Assembly: GCA_963727455.1 (NCBI GenBank)
Contig: CAVSGG010000005.1
Span: forward strand, 224,001-288,000
Origin: Candidatus Krumholzibacteriota bacterium
GTDB taxonomy: Bacteria; Krumholzibacteriota; Krumholzibacteriia; JAJRXK01
Reading direction: 5' to 3'
DNA length: 64,000 bases
Position 1 is the first letter of the stretch. Each line of letters begins with the position of its first letter. Of this stretch, positions 17,547-25,821 are shown one piece after another. A model generated the notes under the pieces. The model saw only the letters and a program-made list of their open reading frames with translations. It was not told the DNA's origin and did no database searches. Both the position numbers and the translations under genes were made by a program.

Positions 17547-19631
17547 ATGAGCGACAATCCATCGCCGCGCTTCCATCTGGACAGCCCCGTGCAGTACCTG
17601 AAAGGAGTTGGCCCGCGTCGCGCGCAACTGCTTGCGCGCCTGGGAATCGAGCGCGGCGAGGATTTCCTCTACCATCTTCCTCACGACTATCTCGAGCGGT
17701 CCTCTCTTGTCTCCCTGCGCGAGTTACGCGAAGGAGAACGGGCCACGGTGCGCGGCCAGCTCATCGATCTGCAGAGCCGGAGAATTCGCGGCGGCCGGAC
17801 CCTGGTGAGCGCCGTACTCATGGAAAATGGACTTCAGCTACACCTCAGCTGGTTCAACGCCCCCTGGGTGGCCAAGCAGCTCCGGATTGGCGAGGAACTG
17901 GTGGTCTCGGGAAGGGTGGGCTCGTACCGGCGGCGATACCAGATGATCAATCCCTCTTTCGAAGATGCTGGCGAGGAGGGAGAACTTCTGTTGGGAGGAC
18001 TTGTGCCGTGCTATCCCCTTACCGGGGGGATCTCGCAGACCACGATGCGCAAGCTCGTTCGCGGCGCCCTGGACTCCCTGCGCGGTGAAGTCGTCGATCC
18101 TCTACCTCCAGCCTGGCGCGGGGAAGAGTCCCTCCTCGATCTGCAGAGCGCCTTGGAAGCAGTGCATCGACCTTCTGATGCCACGCAGGCAACTGCAGGA
18201 AGAAGAAGGCTGGCCTTCGACGAGGCGCTGGCGCTGCAACTCTCGGTGGGCGTGCGACGGCGGCAATTGCTTCGACGTACCGCCGCGGTGCGCATCCAGG
18301 AACTGGGAGCTTTGTCCGGCGCGTATCTGGACCTTCTCGGCTTCACCCTCACCGGGGCTCAGAGGCGTGTGTTGAAAACCCTGAAGCAAGATTTGGCTCG
18401 CGAAATCGCAATGCACCGTCTTCTGCAGGGGGATGTCGGGAGTGGCAAGACTCTGGTCGCGGTCCTGGCCATGATCTGGATGGCTGAGAACGGAGCTCAG
18501 GCTGCGTTCATGGCACCGACCGAGATCCTGGCTCGGCAGCATGCGACGCGCAACCTGCCTCGCTTGGAGAAAATCGGAATTCATGGCGCGGTCCTGACGG
18601 GTAGCACGCCCACGGCCCGCCGGCGTGAGATCCTGCGCGAGCTGAAGTCTGGGCGGATCCAAGTCATCTTCGGAACCCATGCGCTGATCCAAGACGAGGT
18701 GGAGTTCCGTCGTTTGGGCCTGATCGTAGTGGACGAGCAACACCGCTTCGGGGTTCTGCAGAGGGCGGCGCTCTCCGGGCAAGGAGCGCATCTGCTGGTG
18801 ATGTCGGCCACGCCGATTCCACGCAGTCTAGCCCTGACCGTCTTTGCCGATCTCGACCTTTCGATCCTGGATGAAAAGCCCAAAGGACGCCATCCCGTGG
18901 TCACGCGCGTGCTGAGGGAGGCGGCGTTGCGAAAGGTCTACGAGCATCTGAAGAAACGCGTGGCGAAGGGCGAGCGCGCCTACCTGGTGTTTCCTCTGGT
19001 GGAGGAAACGGAAGGAAACGATTTGGCCAGCGCGAGCGCCGCGTACGAGGAACTCAGCGCGGGACCACTTCGGGGGCTGCGGCTGGGACTCTTGCACGGA
19101 AGGATGGCGGCGCGCGAGAAGGAACGTATCCGCAAGGCCTTTTCCAGCGGCGAGCTGGACGTCCTCGTGGCGACCACTGTCGTGGAGGTAGGAGTCGACG
19201 TTCCCGAAGCAACGCTCATGGTCATTCATCATGCCGAGCGTTTCGGACTCGCCCAACTCCATCAACTTCGTGGGCGCGTGGGGCGAGGGGAGAGAGAATC
19301 CTGGTGCGTGCTGGTGGCCAGCCCGGAGATCGGAGAGGCGGGAAGCCGTCGACTGAAACTCCTGGCAAGCTGCGATGATGGTTTCGAATTAGCGGAAGCC
19401 GATCTGCGCGAGCGTGGCATGGGAGACCTGAGCGGCTTGCGACAACACGGACTGGCGCCGTTCCGTGTGCTGAATCCCCTTCGTGATGGAGCCCTGGTGG
19501 AGTCGGCGCGTGCCCGGGCCGAAGCCGTGCTCTCGACCGACCCTCAACTCACTCTTCCCATCCACCGTTCCCTGAGCCAGTGGCTGGATCACCTGGGCTC
19601 ACGCAATCCCTTCTGGAGCGCCACCGGCTGA
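17547..19631 (+). CDS. recG: ATP-dependent DNA helicase RecG
   Basis: YLKGVGP, LLQGDVGSGKT, DEQHRFG, MSATPIPR and QLHQLRGRVGRG motifs. Confidence 0.97.
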   Translation: MSDNPSPRFHLDSPVQYLKGVGPRRAQLLARLGIERGEDFLYHLPHDYLERSSLVSLRELREGERATVRGQLIDLQSRRIRGGRTLVSAVLMENGLQLHLSWFNAPWVAKQLRIGEELVVSGRVGSYRRRYQMINPSFEDAGEEGELLLGGLVPCYPLTGGISQTTMRKLVRGALDSLRGEVVDPLPPAWRGEESLLDLQSALEAVHRPSDATQATAGRRRLAFDEALALQLSVGVRRRQLLRRTAAVRIQELGALSGAYLDLLGFTLTGAQRRVLKTLKQDLAREIAMHRLLQGDVGSGKTLVAVLAMIWMAENGAQAAFMAPTEILARQHATRNLPRLEKIGIHGAVLTGSTPTARRREILRELKSGRIQVIFGTHALIQDEVEFRRLGLIVVDEQHRFGVLQRAALSGQGAHLLVMSATPIPRSLALTVFADLDLSILDEKPKGRHPVVTRVLREAALRKVYEHLKKRVAKGERAYLVFPLVEETEGNDLASASAAYEELSAGPLRGLRLGLLHGRMAAREKERIRKAFSSGELDVLVATTVVEVGVDVPEATLMVIHHAERFGLAQLHQLRGRVGRGERESWCVLVASPEIGEAGSRRLKLLASCDDGFELAEADLRERGMGDLSGLRQHGLAPFRVLNPLRDGALVESARARAEAVLSTDPQLTLPIHRSLSQWLDHLGSRNPFWSATG

Positions 19632-19643
19632 ATTGACGCCCGA

Positions 19644-19659
19644 TGGTCCGAACCTTGCT
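19644..19659 (+). promoter_or_regulatory. Candidate sigma54 -24/-12 promoter
   Basis: TGGTCCGAACCTTGCT (GG-N10-GC, TTGC) in the short intergenic gap, about 87 nt before ATG 19746. Confidence 0.5.
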
Positions 19660-19745
19660 GTCACAGGCCACCACAAGGAACCACAAGCCCTGCGAGAGGC
19701 CGCGGCGGCCGACGACGGGGCTGTCTTTAGATGCGTGGAGAGGCC

Positions 19746-20609
19746 ATGATCGTCCAGTGTGCAGAATGCAAGACTTCCTACCGGCTCCAGGCCGAACTCG
19801 TTCCCCCGCGACGGATCAAGACGCGATGCAATCGCTGTGGACACGTCTTTGCCATCGTTGGACCAGAAGCAGACAGCCGAGGGTCCTCCTCCGCGGGTCA
19901 GTCCACCAGTGGCGGCACCCGGCAGGCGCCGTACGAACCCAGCCGCTACGGCGAGGTCGATCTGAGTGCGGCATCCTCGCGAGTGTCCACGGGACCGGCT
20001 TCCAAACCCTTCGTGCCACCGATTGCTCCCCCCATCTCCTCGCAGGAGCCCGCGGCGCCGGCACCGGCTAGGGCGGCAGCGCCGTCTCCGAAGCTCCCGA
20101 ACGAGACGGTACCGCCTTCCGGCGGGCCGGATAGCGAGCTCAAGATCGAGCGCTCGGAGGGCTTTCCTGGTTCTGCCCCGATGACTCAGAGCGCGGCGGC
20201 CAGGCATGCTCCGGCCGCGCCGTCCCTGGATCAGGCCAGAGCCTCCAGTGTCGCGCTCGAGACTCCTCCGGCGAGTTCTCCCTCTTCCTTCCGGGAATTG
20301 GATCTGGACGAGAGCGCTCTCGCCAGCCCGCCCGAGCAGGAAGCTGCGACGATAAGTCCCGAGGAGCAGCGCAAGCAGGACAAGTCGCGTCGTCTCGCGC
20401 GGGCGCTCGTCAGTGACATCCTCGTGTACAACCGCGCCAAGCGGGATGCGGCTCTGGCCTCGGGCAAGCTGGTACAGGAGCTCGGACCCGAGATCAAGAA
20501 GTCGTGGGAGGTTTACAAGGAGCGCGTGACGCCCGAGGTCGCGAATTCGACCAATCACTTTCGCGAGGCTCTCAACGATATCCTCGCGGATGGCCAACCG
20601 ATCTTCTAA
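19746..20609 (+). CDS. MJ0042-type zinc-ribbon protein with Pro/Ser linker and RomX-like C-terminal domain
   Basis: N-terminal CAEC...CNRCGHVF; C-terminal RRLARALVSDILVYN...EIKKSWEVYKERV...FREALNDIL; GGAGAGG RBS. Confidence 0.8.
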   Translation: MIVQCAECKTSYRLQAELVPPRRIKTRCNRCGHVFAIVGPEADSRGSSSAGQSTSGGTRQAPYEPSRYGEVDLSAASSRVSTGPASKPFVPPIAPPISSQEPAAPAPARAAAPSPKLPNETVPPSGGPDSELKIERSEGFPGSAPMTQSAAARHAPAAPSLDQARASSVALETPPASSPSSFRELDLDESALASPPEQEAATISPEEQRKQDKSRRLARALVSDILVYNRAKRDAALASGKLVQELGPEIKKSWEVYKERVTPEVANSTNHFREALNDILADGQPIF

Positions 20610-20650
20610 TGGGTTAGAGCATTACAAAGAAAATCTGAAGTGTTTTCTAA

Positions 20651-20682
20651 AGACCCCGGTGCCCCACGCCGGGGTTCTTCTT
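20651..20682. terminator. Hairpin terminator between convergent genes
   Basis: GACCCCGG-loop-CCGGGGTT followed by CTTCTT; A-rich on the other side. Confidence 0.55.
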
Positions 20683-20762
20683 ATCCCCGAACACGGGTCG
20701 GAAGGCCGCGCTCGAGGAAAAGAGAAAGCGTTGCCGGGAAGGGGAGAGGATGGAAGTGGAGC

Positions 20763-21215
20763 TCAGTCGCTCTCGTCCCACTTCTTGTCGCTGATCTCTT
20801 GCAGGATACCGTCGATCTGCCCGCGGATGCGCATGTTCTGGTCGGGTTCGAAGAGGGCCTTCTTCACCCGCCCGTACTTGTCTTTTTTCACGAAGCGCAG
20901 GGACTGGAGCGAACTCATGGGGACCAGGATATCCTTGCAGACCTGGACCTCCACGTCTCGGCCCTCGACCGTCTGCGGAGGATTGTTGTCTGGGTGCATT
21001 CCCAGACCCCAGCCGTGCACCACCATGGAGCAGATCAGAGCGCGGAAGGTATTTTGCCCCTGTGTGGTATCCAGATCGATGCTGCCCTGCACCTTTTGGA
21101 TGACCCCGTCCACCACGTAGCTCAGCTTCCGCGCTACCGCCGGTGAGATCTTCATGTTCAACAGCCGACCGAACATCTCGGCCAGGATCTTGTCCGTACT
21201 GCTTATTTTCTCCAC
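20763..21215 (-). CDS. Hypothetical protein (about 150 aa)
   Basis: GGAGG RBS before GTG 21215; globular composition; no family recognised. Confidence 0.7.
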   Translation of the reverse strand: MEKISSTDKILAEMFGRLLNMKISPAVARKLSYVVDGVIQKVQGSIDLDTTQGQNTFRALICSMVVHGWGLGMHPDNNPPQTVEGRDVEVQVCKDILVPMSSLQSLRFVKKDKYGRVKKALFEPDQNMRIRGQIDGILQEISDKKWDESD

Positions 21216-21303
21216 CGGGAGCCTCCACGGGGCCTCACGAGTCGGAATCTTGGGGTCCTCCCGCCTCGGGGACGGGGCAGACCATGGGAGTCGAAAACCA
21301 CGA

Positions 21304-21319
21304 TGCAAGGGCGGTGCCC
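21304..21319 (-). promoter_or_regulatory. Candidate sigma54 promoter (divergent, leftward)
   Basis: Minus strand GGGCACCGCCCTTGCA, about 89 nt before GTG 21215. Confidence 0.55.
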
Positions 21320-21386
21320 GAAGGCGGAAAGGGCTACAGGCGGCTTTGGCGCGCCGGACCGGGTTGAAATGAGGAATTCGAGAGAG

Positions 21387-21423
21387 GGAGCGTCGGACCC
21401 TTCGGGGGTCCGTCGTTCCTTTT
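21387..21423 (+). terminator. Terminator-like hairpin between the divergent promoters
   Basis: GGAGCGTCGGACCC-TTCG-GGGGTCCGTCGTTCC then TTTT. Confidence 0.5.
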
Positions 21424-21465
21424 GGAGGGGGGCCGAGGATCAGGACGGAGCCTGCCTGCCGAGGA

Positions 21466-21480
21466 TGGCATGGAGATTGC
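21466..21480 (+). promoter_or_regulatory. Candidate sigma54 promoter for the mglA-like gene
   Basis: TGGCATGGAGATTGC, near consensus TGGCAC-N5-TTGC, about 78 nt before ATG 21559. Confidence 0.65.
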
Positions 21481-21558
21481 CCTGATTCTCAGCGCGCGAA
21501 GTCGATCGCTCATCGCCGTGCGTTTGGCGAGAAGCATTCCCGATCCCAGCGAGACACC

Positions 21559-23184
21559 ATGGTCGTCTATAACTACAGCGGCAAGGAAATCAACGCGAAG
21601 ATCGTCTACTACGGCCCTGCACTCAGCGGGAAGACCACCAATCTGGAGTGGATCTATTCGAAAATTCCGCTGGAGTATTCGGGCAAGATGATTTCCCTGA
21701 GGACCCAAACCGACCGCACGATTTTCTTCGATTTTCTTCCTCTGGAACTGGGTCTGATCGACGGTTTCAAGACTCGCTTCATGCTCTACACAGTACCCGG
21801 CCAGGTCTACTACAACGCCACGCGGAAGATGGTGCTCAAAGGAGCCGATGGGGTGGTTTTCGTGGCGGACAGTGAAGAAGGACGGATGCAGGACAACCTG
21901 GAGAGTCTGCAGAACCTCAAGGACAACTTGGCAGAAATCGGTTTGGATCCGGCGACGATCCCGATCGTGCTGCAATGGAACAAGAGGGACCTGCCTTCGA
22001 CGATCGAGACCGAGCAACTCGAACGTCAGCTGAATCCGGAAGGCCATCCGTCGTTCTCCGCTTGCGCACTGACGGGCGAGGGGGTTTACGAATCTCTTCA
22101 CCAGATCAGCCGCATGATCTACCGCAATCTGGCCACCGAGGAAGGCACGGTTCCCCAGGAGAGCCAAAACCTGCAGAGCAGCGCCTCGCTCTTTGGAGAA
22201 GACATCGAGGCTCGACTGCGAGATGTCGATCATCCGGATCCGACCTTGAAGGACTCGGTAAGGCTTCAGGGCCCCTCCACGGTCAAGAACTCCGGTTCGA
22301 AGGGATCGAGTGTGCTGAGTTCGATCCTGGGGAGTCTCCAGCGGCACACTCGAGGCGCCAACGAGCGACCGGAAGAGACTCAAGCTCCCCGGGTAACGCC
22401 CGGCTCATCGGGGGAAGGGGGAGCCCCTAGGGAAACGCAGAACGCGGATGCTCCGTGGCAGGGTACTCCGCGCTCGGAGCAGAGACAGAAGGACGCTGAG
22501 ACGGTGACGGTGGGAACGCGGACGATGGCAGTTGCAGGCGAGGAGGACCCACGGGCCGACTCACACACAGGATTCGAAACGAAAGGTCCACAGACCATGT
22601 CCCAGACGCCCACTCCCTCCGGCGATCCGCTGGGCGAACGGCAAGCCAGTTCCGATTCGATCCAGGACGAACCCACTCGTCCCATCGCGAGTTCGCAGCC
22701 CGAGCAGCCCCCCAAAGCCCCTCTCGTGGACGAAACGGTTGCCGACCTCGTCGACACGCTCTTCTCACCCAAGGAGAGTGCCCCGAGTGGGGATTCCGCC
22801 CAAAACGATGAACTCGCCTACGAATCGGGCTTTGGGCGCATGGTTGATTTGGGGCCGGATTCCCAAGCGGGCAAACGTCCTCCCAAGGACGACGACTTCG
22901 AACTTCCCGAGGATTTGCTGGAATCGGGCGCCTTCACCGCCGTGCCCGCGAAAAAGGAAGAGGAAGAAGAGGAGTCGCTCGAGCTCATCACTGATCCCCG
23001 TAAGAAGCCCATGGATTCCGGTTCGGGACCGGGCATACCGCTGAGTGCGGATTACCAGACAGGGGCCTTCAAGCCGCTTTCGGGGAGCGCCCGTACCATT
23101 GAAGTTCCGATCACTCTCGATGCGGAACTTCTGGACGAGGGCCAGTCGGTTCGGATCGTTCTCAACTTGAAGCTGCAGCGCTGA
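21559..23184 (+). CDS. mglA: MglA-family small Ras-like GTPase with about 350-aa low-complexity C-terminal extension
   Basis: KIVYYGPALSGKTTNL, DRTIFFDF, YTVPGQVYY, GADGVVFVADS and NKRD motifs. Confidence 0.9.
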   Translation: MVVYNYSGKEINAKIVYYGPALSGKTTNLEWIYSKIPLEYSGKMISLRTQTDRTIFFDFLPLELGLIDGFKTRFMLYTVPGQVYYNATRKMVLKGADGVVFVADSEEGRMQDNLESLQNLKDNLAEIGLDPATIPIVLQWNKRDLPSTIETEQLERQLNPEGHPSFSACALTGEGVYESLHQISRMIYRNLATEEGTVPQESQNLQSSASLFGEDIEARLRDVDHPDPTLKDSVRLQGPSTVKNSGSKGSSVLSSILGSLQRHTRGANERPEETQAPRVTPGSSGEGGAPRETQNADAPWQGTPRSEQRQKDAETVTVGTRTMAVAGEEDPRADSHTGFETKGPQTMSQTPTPSGDPLGERQASSDSIQDEPTRPIASSQPEQPPKAPLVDETVADLVDTLFSPKESAPSGDSAQNDELAYESGFGRMVDLGPDSQAGKRPPKDDDFELPEDLLESGAFTAVPAKKEEEEEESLELITDPRKKPMDSGSGPGIPLSADYQTGAFKPLSGSARTIEVPITLDAELLDEGQSVRIVLNLKLQR

Positions 23185-23219
23185 GACGACGCCTATCTCG
23201 CTCACGCCTCGTCTTCGAT

Positions 23220-23252
23220 CGAGCCGGACGCAAGCTGCGCCCGGCTCGTTTT
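23220..23252 (+). terminator. Rho-independent terminator
   Basis: CGAGCCGG...CCGGCTCG followed by TTTT, after the mglA stop. Confidence 0.6.
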
Positions 23253-23274
23253 CCCATTGGATCTCGCGACAGGA

Positions 23275-23303
23275 TTGACAGCGGAGGCGGCCAGCTCTAG
23301 CCT
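23275..23303 (+). promoter_or_regulatory. Candidate sigma70 promoter
   Basis: TTGACA-17 nt-TAGCCT upstream of the TPR-trpA-uppP-moeA run. Confidence 0.5.
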
Positions 23304-23367
23304 GCGCTAGGAGTAACCCAGCTTCCCCTTTTGAGGTCGTGGTCGTTTGTCTGAAGCTCCCCTACGC

Positions 23368-24198
23368 ATGAAGGTCGAGATCCAGGATCCGGTGACACGG
23401 GCCCGTCTGCTCGAGAACGAAGGACGTCTCGAGGAAGCTCTGGAGGTCCTGGCGGCGCTTCCGGAGGGTCCACGCTCCTCGGCAGATGCGTGCTATCGCA
23501 TGGCCCACATATATCTGCAGCAAGGAAAGCTGGAGCAGGCGGAGTCCTGGCTGCGCCAGACTCTCAACTTGCGCTTCGAGGACGCGCGAGCTCATACCAA
23601 TTTGGGCGTGGTTTTGGATCTCCGTGGTCACCATCAGGATGCGATCCGGGCCTTTCGTCGGGCCATCCAGCTCGCACCCGACGAGCCCGCAGCCTATCTC
23701 AACCTGGGTGCGATTTACGGAGAGCTGGGACGCCACGAAGATGCCGTACGCTGCCTGGAACGCTGTCTCGAATTGGCTCCCTCCTACGATGCGATCTTCA
23801 ACCTCGCATTGGTACGTTTGCGACAGGGTGAATTGGCCCCGGCGGAGAGTCTATTGGAGCGTGCACTCCACGAAAGTGGCGATCATCCCCTGGCTCACTA
23901 CTACCTGGGTCTATGCCGTTCACGGCGCGGGCTGCTAAGAGAAGCCGCCGAGGCTTTCGAGGCGGCCCTGGCGTGCAACGAAGATCTCGTGCGCGCACGT
24001 TATCATCTGGGGAAAGTTCATCGTCGCCGGGGCCGCACGCACGATGCAGTGCGGGAACTCAAGAAAGTGGCGCATGCCCTCCCTGACGATGCACAGGTCA
24101 TGCGCGAACTCGGCTTCGCGTACGATGCACTCTCCATGAAGTCGGAGTCGCTGCAGTGTTTTCGTCGCGCACGCATGCTCGACGCGGCGGACAGTTGA
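23368..24198 (+). CDS. TPR protein
   Basis: About 7 canonical TPRs (AHTNLGVVL, AYLNLGAIY, AHYYLG); alternative TTG start at 23347. Confidence 0.85.
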   Translation: MKVEIQDPVTRARLLENEGRLEEALEVLAALPEGPRSSADACYRMAHIYLQQGKLEQAESWLRQTLNLRFEDARAHTNLGVVLDLRGHHQDAIRAFRRAIQLAPDEPAAYLNLGAIYGELGRHEDAVRCLERCLELAPSYDAIFNLALVRLRQGELAPAESLLERALHESGDHPLAHYYLGLCRSRRGLLREAAEAFEAALACNEDLVRARYHLGKVHRRRGRTHDAVRELKKVAHALPDDAQVMRELGFAYDALSMKSESLQCFRRARMLDAADS

Positions 24199-24221
24199 AT
24201 GTCCGCCAGCCAGGACCTTCG

Positions 24222-25037
24222 GTGAACCCACAGAGCAGCAAGTCGCCCCCCTCGGCTCGTGAGGCGCTCCTCGGCGCGCGTGCGCGGGGGCAGTGCGCGC
24301 TCGTTCCCTACTTGACCCTGGGTTACCCTTCGCTCGATGCGAGCCTGGAGCTACTGGAGGGAATCGAGCAGTTGGGGGTGGACGTGGTGGAGTTGGGCGT
24401 TCCCTTCAGCGACCCCGTGGCCGATGGGCCCACCATCCAGCACACCATCGATCGCGCGCTGTCGCAGGGGGTGACCCTGCGGCAGATTTTGGAAACGCTG
24501 AAGTCCTCAACTCATGATACCCCAAGGGTTCTCTTCAGTTACTTCAATCCTCTTCTGAGTTATGGCCTGTCCTCCCTGGCGCCTGCCCTCGTCTCGCGTG
24601 GAGTGGGAGCGACCCTCATCACGGATCTGGTGGTCGAGGAGGCGGACGAGTTCCGCGGTTTGGCCCACGCAGGCGGACTCGAGCTCTGCTTTCTGGTGGC
24701 CTCGACCTCCGACGGTGAGAGGCTGAGGCGGGCCGCCGAGGCCAGTACGGGATTCGTCTATTGCGTGGCGACTATGGGTGTCACGGGGTCGAGGACCAGT
24801 TTGGATGATCGCGCCCGTGAGACGGTGCAGCGTCTGCGAGAGCAGAGTGAAGCACCCGTGGCAGTGGGATTCGGGATCTCCTCGGTGGAGGACGTGCAGC
24901 GAGTGAGAGAATTCGCCGATGGTGCCGTGGTGGGAAGTGCCTTCCTGCGCGCTCTGGGCCAGGAGACTTCGCCGCGGAGCGTTCGTCAGAGAGGGATCGA
25001 ATACTTGGGTCCTTTGCTGGAGGCGGCCCGTGCCTGA
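24222..25037 (+). CDS. trpA: Tryptophan synthase alpha subunit
   Basis: PYLTLGYP, ELGVPFSDPVADGPTIQ, GVTG, VGFGIS and DGAVVGSA motifs. Confidence 0.93.
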   Translation: MNPQSSKSPPSAREALLGARARGQCALVPYLTLGYPSLDASLELLEGIEQLGVDVVELGVPFSDPVADGPTIQHTIDRALSQGVTLRQILETLKSSTHDTPRVLFSYFNPLLSYGLSSLAPALVSRGVGATLITDLVVEEADEFRGLAHAGGLELCFLVASTSDGERLRRAAEASTGFVYCVATMGVTGSRTSLDDRARETVQRLREQSEAPVAVGFGISSVEDVQRVREFADGAVVGSAFLRALGQETSPRSVRQRGIEYLGPLLEAARA

Positions 25038-25821
25038 TCTCGTCAATCTGCCCTTGCTTCTGCTCGCACTGATTCAGGGCGCCACGGAGTTCCTTCCCGT
25101 GAGCAGCAGCGGTCATCTCGCTCTGGTTCAACTCCTCCCCTCGATTCATGCCGGAGGGGTTTTCGAAGACGTGATGTTGCACCTGGGGACTTTGGGCGCG
25201 GTGGTGGTGTTCTATCGCGAGGACCTGAAGGCTCTGCTGCAGGGTCTATTCGTGCGCAGTGCTGCCGGGCGCGAGTCACGGCGTTACCTCGGCCTCATCC
25301 TCTGGGGCAGCGTACCGGCCGGGATCGTGGGCGTGTTGTTCGCGGATCGGGTGGAGAGCGCGTTTGGCCATGTAGGCTTCGTTCTGATTGCGTTAGCGGT
25401 AACGGGTCTTCTCCTGAAACTGAGCGATCGGATTCCGCGGCGGGGATTGCCCCTGAATGCGCGCATCGCCTTCCTGGTGGGATGTGCTCAGGCTTTGGCG
25501 ATTCTCCCCGGTTTCTCGCGCAGCGGGTGGACGATCGTGGCCGGCCTGTACTTGGGATTGGCTCCCAAGGAGAGCGCCCGCTTCAGTTTTTTGCTTTCTG
25601 TCCCCGCCATCCTGGGGGCGACCCTTCTTCAGCTCCTGGCCTACCAGGGCGTCCACAGCCCTTGGGCTTCCCTGGTTCCCGCGATGTTCGTGGCGTTCGT
25701 GGTGGGGTTGCTCTGCCTGAGCTGGCTCGTGCGGCTTGTGCAGTCCATGGCATTGGGGCGTTTCGCTTACTACCTGTGGGCCCTGTGCCTCGGCGTTGCG
25801 CTCGTGCTGATGCTTGCTTAG
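25030..25821 (+). CDS. uppP: Undecaprenyl-diphosphate phosphatase (BacA)
   Basis: QGATEFLPVSSSGHL, PGFSRSG and ARFSFLLSVPAILGA motifs. Confidence 0.95.
   Translation: MPDLVNLPLLLLALIQGATEFLPVSSSGHLALVQLLPSIHAGGVFEDVMLHLGTLGAVVVFYREDLKALLQGLFVRSAAGRESRRYLGLILWGSVPAGIVGVLFADRVESAFGHVGFVLIALAVTGLLLKLSDRIPRRGLPLNARIAFLVGCAQALAILPGFSRSGWTIVAGLYLGLAPKESARFSFLLSVPAILGATLLQLLAYQGVHSPWASLVPAMFVAFVVGLLCLSWLVRLVQSMALGRFAYYLWALCLGVALVLMLA

Follow-up and report, generated by a model that had tools for sequence, protein, structure and literature searches.

A Zn-ribbon protein with a RomX-homologous domain, encoded beside an MglA paralogue in a conserved gene cluster of Candidatus Krumholzibacteriota

Introduction

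We describe a gene cluster within a 64,000-nucleotide stretch of DNA from a Candidatus Krumholzibacteriota bacterium (assembly GCA_963727455.1, contig CAVSGG010000005.1, positions 224,001 to 288,000; the whole of this stretch is termed the window), in which a protein composed of a Zn ribbon (ZnR), a long linker and a C-terminal homologue of RomX is encoded beside a long-tailed paralogue of the GTPase MglA, here named MglA2. Between the two, on the opposite strand, lies a gene for a 150-amino-acid (aa) protein, termed mid. On balance we consider it probable that the ZnR protein is a RomR-independent adaptor that would bind an MglA-family GTPase when the latter carries GTP, operating within a co-regulated and conserved cluster. 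All of the evidence presented is comparative.

In Myxococcus xanthus it is RomX that makes the contact with MglA, its action being enhanced and localised by RomR; co-occurrence with RomR led to the discovery of RomX, which has been counted among the components of the myxobacterial polarity module (PMC9481161). A second relevant protein is GltJ, in which a ZnR at the N-terminus is followed by an MglA-GTP-binding linker and a GYF domain; the ZnR, when released, binds the C-terminal helix of MglB and raises the efficiency of this GTPase-activating protein (GAP) about fourfold (PMC11135422).

Viewed against these systems, the RomX-type domain emerges as the conserved terminus of a protein family of great size, in nearly all cases with a Zn ribbon fused to it. 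Across an entire class of uncultured FCB-group bacteria it is locked beside an MglA paralogue. The cluster offers a natural RomR-free RomX for the disputed question of whether RomX is a GEF (guanine nucleotide exchange factor) or an effector, a putative second example of the design ZnR, linker and MglA binder that GltJ embodies, a highly conserved unannotated partner gene, and a series of lineages with the GTPase intact, degenerate or lost.

The original prediction, made from the DNA sequence alone, held that such a system was undescribed in this lineage. The literature searched contained no paper with both Krumholzibacteri* and MglA, and RomX and "zinc ribbon" occurred together only in the GltJ paper (PMC11135422), where no fusion is described; supplements lay outside the search. 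Association of a ZnR with the RomX fold has nevertheless been noted in passing: a preprint reports, from Foldseek hits, RomX-like folds with receiver or "Zinc finger/thioredoxin putative" domains (bioRxiv 10.1101/2024.02.20.581209, section 6), the Zn finger there accompanying receiver-domain hits. The available text of that preprint describes neither the cluster, its gene context and lineage, nor the linkage to an MglA paralogue, the unnamed gene or the promoters. Novelty therefore extends to these features and not to the domain association itself.

Results

Domain layout of the Zn-ribbon/RomX-like protein

The gene occupies positions 19746-20609 on the plus strand, directly after recG (17547-19631, plus strand), and encodes 287 aa. 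Its ATG at 19746 is the start common to homologues, and a start at 19731 was rejected because homologues begin at 19746. The product had been foreseen as a Zn ribbon, a Pro/Ser linker and a compact C-terminal domain, a layout borne out by Pfam and TIGR scores and by an AlphaFold2 (AF2) model. Residues 1-40 (19746..19865) carry two CxxC pairs and score above the curated cut-offs of both relevant families, Pfam Zn_ribbon_4 (PF13717; E 1.3e-12, 47.9 bits against 30.3) and TIGR02098 MJ0042_CXXC (E 1.1e-9, 37.7 bits against 20.9), which places them among Zn ribbons of the MJ0042 type. They are modelled with pLDDT values (predicted local distance difference test) of 92-96, and their best structural matches by Foldseek are the Zn finger of ZitP (2NB9, E 0.043) and, weakly, the ZnR of GltJ (7ZOK, E 2.3); the latter was also matched by sequence at E 1e-3 (phmmer). 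The Pro/Ser/Ala-rich linker that follows (residues ~41-200, ~160 aa; 19866..20357) is predicted to be disordered, with pLDDT ~45-63, and is unalignable and variable in length among 44 homologues. The RomX-like helical domain (residues ~205-287) completes the gene, at 20358..20609 including the stop codon.

Homology of the C-terminal domain to RomX

The resemblance of this domain to RomX, which the original prediction had put forward, is one of homology. The domain aligns with the M. xanthus RomX chain of PDB 8ZNA over 71 residues without a gap (phmmer E 4e-9). Residues 205-287 are modelled with pLDDT 87-98, and 8ZNA is both the top Foldseek match of the AF2 model and the sole match at E <=0.001 (E 3e-4; template modelling score, TM, 0.76 on target; 36% identity and a root-mean-square deviation of 1.3 A across 75 columns). 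Helix-1 residues R11, R14 and D19 of RomX, reported as MglA-GTP contacts (bioRxiv 10.1101/2024.02.20.581209), have Arg, Arg and Asp as their aligned counterparts; among the 44 aligned homologues the aspartate (D224) is invariant and the second arginine (R219) at least 90% conserved. The C-terminal domain is thus a RomX homologue that has the RomX fold and keeps the Arg/Arg/Asp set of helix 1. The protein ends six residues past the RomX-aligned block, in a conserved G-x-K-I/V-F, and this C-terminal end contains no Trp matching RomX Trp-87, the residue reported to stack into the RomR receiver domain (bioRxiv 10.1101/2024.02.20.581209).

The genome assembly encodes a single RomX-like domain. By contrast with that single copy, a protein library clustered at 50% identity yielded 1,705 representatives at E <=0.001, nearly always with the domain in a C-terminal position. 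Matches include 1,425 proteins of 160-511 aa, and 115 of the best 120 bear Zn-ribbon Pfam domains; the spread of Zn-ribbon/RomX-like proteins beyond the class is known from a few submitter labels only. Two to five RomX-like copies occur in nine of the best 150 of the 1,705 representatives (P0123, P0133, P0134, P0161, P0171, P0175, P0181, P0187 and P0215), the proteins with tandem copies being 365-987 aa long.

MglA2 and its relation to the canonical MglA

The gene mglA2 (21559-23184, plus strand) encodes 541 aa, of which residues 1-192 (21559..22134) form an MglA-type G domain; residues 3-192 match the MglA structures 5YMX, 6HJH and 3T12 at E ~1e-69 (best 7e-70). The P-loop and the motifs D52-R53-T54, T78-V-P-G-Q82 and N-K-R-D show no variation in an alignment of 20 sequences, and the G domain accordingly has the Arg53, Thr78 in G3 and Gln82 that mark group-1 MglA. 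Group-1 proteins are single domains of ~195 residues, a length that MglA2 exceeds by a C-terminal tail of ~350 aa (22135..23184); linked copies in relatives measure 341-619 aa. Long MglA-like proteins are themselves abundant, at least 7,998 of 297-947 aa being found at E <=1e-20 among 8,000 scored candidates.

No Pfam match was obtained in the 350-residue tail. An alignment of 21 loci revealed short motifs kept across families, G-R/H-x-V/I-D/E-L and F-I/V-x-D-P-x-R, along with a terminal stretch of alternating hydrophobic residues; the motifs look like docking motifs. Elsewhere the tails are unalignable between families. In the linked copies of one family, f1, the P-loop reads G-P-A-L-S-G-K-T-T, with Ala replacing the Gly equivalent to MglA Gly21, a position that we take to correspond to Ras Gly12; most other families keep Gly. 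This replacement may change sensitivity to a GAP.

MglA2 had been taken for an orphan. No Roadblock/MglB gene adjoins mglA2 in its neighbourhood, and none lies within the four genes used elsewhere as a measure of mglB coupling (PMC4316618), so that this part of the description stands. The GTPase is not, however, the only MglA of the genome: a search for mglB, proposed along with the original prediction, located a canonical mglB-mglA pair directly after dnaX-ybaB-recR, 85 kb upstream of mglA2 on the same contig (contig C5 of assembly G000). The canonical mglB product, found at C5:160042-160305 by the sole Robl_LC7 match in the genome, has 167 aa, with Robl_LC7 at residues 19-106 and a 60-residue C-terminal extension; the canonical mglA (C5:160519-161088) encodes 192 aa, 57% identical to MglA2.

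In a tree of 21 linked, 21 canonical and four degenerate copies, the linked copies group together on a long stem as a single clade (support 100/100), and branching within it tracks the genome families. The root was placed at the midpoint and the degenerate rows form long branches, so the claim is limited to one old duplication, without direction. Judged by tree and alignment, MglA2 is a faster-evolving paralogue of canonical MglA in which the catalytic MglA motifs have been kept.

A highly conserved gene between the two

Between the RomX-like gene and mglA2 lies the reading frame mid (20763-21215, minus strand), which starts with GTG, is divergent from mglA2 and encodes the 150-aa protein that had been noted as a novel one of an intervening gene. 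Its GTG start agrees with the N-termini of homologues. The frame is present in 20/20 relatives' loci, always on the opposite strand and with 49-98% identity, and is the best conserved of the cluster (across 17 sequences, 36 columns are invariant and column identity averages 73%). Plus-strand open reading frames (ORFs) at 20590-21120 and 20640-21146, the second without a Pfam match, were rejected, the minus-strand frame being the conserved one.

The mid protein has 652 homologues of 82-263 aa, and the best 120 of these carry no Pfam domain and no name beyond "hypothetical protein". The protein itself is without a match in Pfam, NCBIfam or PDB, by sequence or profile; its AF2 model, built on a 17-row alignment, is poor (mean pLDDT 57.8), and a search of the ESM Atlas gave a best score of 0.81, under the useful range. 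Comparison by hhalign found no relation between this family and the RomX-like family (probability 0.1).

Conservation of the cluster

Conservation was assessed in a sample of 41 genomes, with relatives treated as one class; in 20 fetched relatives' loci spanning eight families; and in 80 loci seeded on mid. The RomX-like domain was detected in 38/41 genomes, one match in each, and an MglA match at E <=1e-20 in 37/41; one of the three genomes without a RomX-like match is 64% complete. In 28/41 genomes a long MglA copy shares a contig with the RomX-like gene at a distance of 0.9-6 kb, and the order recG, ZnR/RomX-like gene, mid (other strand) and mglA2 is kept in 20/20 fetched loci, so that the linkage for which a check in relatives had been proposed is indeed conserved. 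In the seeded set, 69 of the 80 loci have the RomX-like gene, 63 recG and 64 a tetratricopeptide repeat (TPR) gene. A GTPase gene occupies the mglA2 slot in 58, with at least 59% identity to MglA2 in 42 of these; one further locus is ambiguous for the GTPase and seven are ended by contig edges.

Submitter labels of the 80 loci include Candidatus Krumholzibacteriota or -iia (25), "uncultured Fibrobacteraceae" or Fibrobacter (16), Latescibacter* (9), Chitinivibrionia (1) and Gemmatimonas (1). On comparative grounds, the cluster is best described as a vertically inherited one of Candidatus Krumholzibacteriota.

Candidate sigma54-type promoters

The region upstream of each gene start (250 nt) was scanned in the window and in the 20 loci for TGGCAC-N5-TTGCW with a threshold of <=2 mismatches. 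The three -24/-12 motifs that the original prediction had seen are at 19644..19659 (plus strand, two mismatches) for the ZnR/RomX-like gene, 21304..21319 (minus strand, one mismatch) for mid and 21466..21481 (plus strand, two mismatches) for mglA2, starting 102, 104 and 93 nt upstream of the respective gene starts. Each recurs in relatives. The motif of the ZnR gene has <=2 mismatches in 12/14 loci scanned, 97-138 nt upstream, and three mismatches in the other two; that of mglA2 has <=2 mismatches in 20/21 loci, with differing spacer sequence, and three in the remaining one; and that of mid has <=2 mismatches in 12/21 loci, including 9/9 of family f1, three mismatches in seven and no counterpart in two. 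Matches at the window rate would arise by chance ~0.04 times per 250-nt upstream region. When the intergenic DNA between mid and mglA2 was aligned for the nine f1 loci, the two -24/-12 elements were the sole invariant blocks. The f1 relatives are kin, hence non-independent, and it is the footprint pattern that carries the weight.

The assembly encodes rpoN, and NtrC-type AAA+ tails are present in nine of its 26 receiver proteins; no sigma70-like site was found in 19500-23500. The motifs thus combine the GG-N10-GC core and flanks with a conserved distance, a sigma54 gene in the genome and conservation in relatives. At least three cluster genes are predicted each to have a sigma54-dependent promoter of its own, and the proposed co-regulation gains from the persistence of the motifs while the surrounding DNA is not kept. 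A hairpin with a perfect 8-bp stem between the two divergent promoters (21394-21412) proved unconserved in the f1 alignment and was set aside.

One might suppose instead that the genes are neighbours by chance and that the sigma54-like motifs are chance matches. Across the whole window the motif is no commoner than chance, with 22 occurrences found at <=2 mismatches against 22.9 expected from shuffles, and for that reason the motifs on their own are no evidence. Prediction of a complex between the RomX-like domain (residues 198-287, 44-row alignment) and the MglA2 G domain (residues 1-194, 20 rows), with GTP and Mg, had no usable outcome: its scores were 0.02 and 0.05 where the mark is 0.32, in a run without controls, and it counts neither for nor against binding. 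Coincidence is nevertheless contradicted by a gene order kept in 20/20 loci over eight families, by the motif scans of relatives, by the 80 seeded loci and by the f1 footprint, and we regard it as very improbable.

Lineage variation and its bearing on the proposed adaptor

Since the protein has the same order of parts as GltJ and a folded RomX-type domain as its likely MglA-GTP binder, we read it as a RomR-independent adaptor. Several observations weigh against this reading, in addition to the window-wide motif count given above. In family f2, six genomes carry the RomX-like gene and, as their only MglA, a short unlinked copy; in 4/41 genomes the RomX-like domain is divergent and MglA matches at E <=1e-20 are absent. 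Among the 80 seeded loci, 16 hold a degenerate GTPase in the mglA2 slot, 29-35% identical to MglA2 and lacking the switch I/II motifs and the G4 lysine, and in 14 the TPR gene follows directly after mid, the GTPase being gone. Lineages of these two kinds imply that the RomX-like protein is not simply a dedicated factor of the neighbouring GTPase, and they argue that the other three cluster genes may also have a GTPase-independent role, or may use the canonical MglA. From the literature, the biochemical role of RomX as a GEF is disputed, RomRX having been described as an effector that binds only MglA-GTP (bioRxiv 10.1101/2024.10.31.621274), and ZnR-GYF proteins outside Myxococcales are uncorrelated with MglA-MglB operons (PMC11135422).

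The degenerate slot gene, found in loci L083, L084, L090-L092, L097, L103, L104, L106-L110 and L112-L114, looks like that of a pseudo-GTPase; Arg often stands in place of the P-loop Thr.

The loci without an intact GTPase, and the four genomes combining a RomX-like domain with no MglA match, would be expected if the RomX-like adaptor, mid, the TPR protein and a HATPase_c_2 protein formed a GTPase-independent signalling core, in which the GTPase is dispensable and the RomX-like bundle binds a non-GTPase partner. A gene for such a HATPase_c_2 protein, resembling anti-sigma-factor kinases, is situated within the cluster, between the RomX-like gene and mid, in 43/80 seeded loci and 15/20 relatives' loci. 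An example (locus L028, 4855-5748; ~297 aa) has HATPase_c_2 at its C-terminus (E 7e-25) and no Pfam match in its N-terminal 190 residues. We nevertheless judge such a core unlikely. Within the domain family, conservation is highest at the positions through which RomX is reported to contact MglA; a GTPase-derived gene remains in the slot in the 58 loci noted above, seven more being ended by contig edges; and it is the HATPase gene that is missing at the locus described here and in this genus, with no close homologue in this genome assembly, while the other genes are kept.

Alternatively, the canonical MglA-MglB pair could be the main target of the ZnR/RomX-like protein, in type IV pilus polarity for instance, with MglA2 a co-regulated neighbour that has a separate job. 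The six f2 genomes, with only a short canonical MglA, are in keeping with this, as is the closer relation of the canonical copy to M. xanthus MglA (280 bits, against 240 for MglA2). The ZnR of GltJ works through MglB (PMC11135422), and MglB is encoded here only at the canonical locus. The genome, 88.9% complete, furthermore has three PilT-family genes above the family cut-off, together with a fourth match beneath that level, and a search of it for flagellin found none. Against this alternative, the conserved adjacency in 28/41 genomes is to mglA2 and not to mglBA, and genomes G029 and G034 show the linked copy only (E <=1e-20). We consider a role mainly on the canonical pair a minority prospect, well short of the RomR-independent adaptor described above.

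As to RomR itself, for which a genome search had also been proposed, none of the 26 receiver-domain matches in the same 88.9%-complete genome has a RomR-like architecture of receiver and long low-complexity tail; of the two polarity genes sought, only mglB was thus recovered.

Neighbouring genes and other features

Downstream of mglA2 lies a TPR gene (23347..24198, plus strand; 283 aa; Pfam TPR_1 E 4.9e-39), which is retained in 19/20 relatives' loci. Beyond it, ORFs at 24156-25037 (trpA-like) and 24919-25821 (undecaprenyl-diphosphatase-like), names that we take from a reading of the translations only, overlap by ~120 nt as called from their first start codons; their true starts are probably further downstream. 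Immediately 3' of the RomX-like gene, a hairpin with a T-rich tail (20652..20676, plus strand) resembles a terminator. Terminator-like sites are not enriched in the region (three found, 3.2 expected in shuffles), and position alone suggests that this one serves the RomX-like gene. Elsewhere on the contig (C5:397686-399859 and C5:402998-403327), a PilB-like gene (564-aa open frame) adjoins a PilT gene, and an NtrC-type receiver/AAA+ activator 3 kb beyond could be a PilR-like regulator.

Discussion

How the RomR-independent adaptor might operate can be sketched in conditional terms. The RomX-like domain would bind an MglA-family GTPase in its GTP-loaded state, in the first place MglA2 and probably canonical MglA too. 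It might stimulate nucleotide exchange or merely bind MglA-GTP, either being conceivable, as for RomX itself. It would hold the GTPase at a site or partner that the Zn ribbon selects, the ribbon thus replacing RomR in the targeting job that RomR performs in Myxococcus; if GltJ or ZitP is a guide, MglB or a polar or scaffold hub could be what the ribbon binds. The tail of MglA2, presumably disordered and bearing its short motifs, would together with the TPR protein and the mid protein supply outputs or further regulators, and an enhancer-binding protein would turn the whole set on together.

A more ambitious version, which we advance tentatively and think doubtful as a whole, envisages a self-contained, RomR-free module. 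A single polypeptide, joining a RomX-type domain to a Zn ribbon of the GltJ/ZitP type, would serve as an intramolecular switch, by which a specialised, MglB-less paralogue of MglA is coupled either to a polar hub or to MglB. The mid protein would be a new regulator, whether GAP, co-GAP or effector, without a known fold; a sigma54 activator would fire the set; and in some lineages a pseudo-GTPase would act as scaffold.

Among known proteins, the mid protein might conceivably resemble RomY, which has 188 aa and no domain model (PMC9481161). With RomX (8ZNA) the present protein shares a homologous three-helix domain and the Arg/Arg/Asp of helix 1, in a genome that likewise encodes MglA and MglB. 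RomX is, however, a stand-alone protein (its PDB chain has 95 residues), whereas here a Zn ribbon and a long linker precede the domain, which ends a protein of 287 aa and is thus no free-standing unit of ~90 residues. RomX pairs with RomR through helix 3 and Trp-87; here the Trp-87 segment is without counterpart and no RomR-like protein was found among the 26 receiver matches. RomX is myxobacterial, while the gene described here is non-myxobacterial and linked to an MglA paralogue.

Among Zn-ribbon proteins, ZitP of Caulobacter supplies the second-best structural match of the ribbon (2NB9, TM 0.64 on target). The ZnR of ZitP binds the polar organiser PopZ (PMC11135422); unlike the protein here, ZitP is without a RomX-like domain. 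GltJ has the same type of Zn ribbon in the same N-terminal position, after which come a flexible linker and an MglA-GTP binder, the latter putative in the present protein; the matches to 7ZOK are weak but present. The two differ in that GltJ is a membrane protein of the gliding machine, 671 positions long, and the protein here has no GYF domain; the NCBIfam GltJ model scores it at 17.1 bits against a cut-off of 450, the Zn ribbon alone matching, which places it outside the GltJ family. The MglA binder of GltJ is a linear motif, whereas the putative binder here is a folded RomX-like domain.

MglA2, finally, recalls SofG of M. xanthus and the MglA of Bdellovibrio in being an MglA-family GTPase encoded away from mglB, and 59/449 MglA-family GTPases have been classed as orphans (PMC4316618). 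Compared with such orphans (SofG by description only), MglA2 is distinguished by keeping all of the group-1 catalytic motifs, by its 57% identity to the canonical copy of its own genome and by its 350-aa tail.

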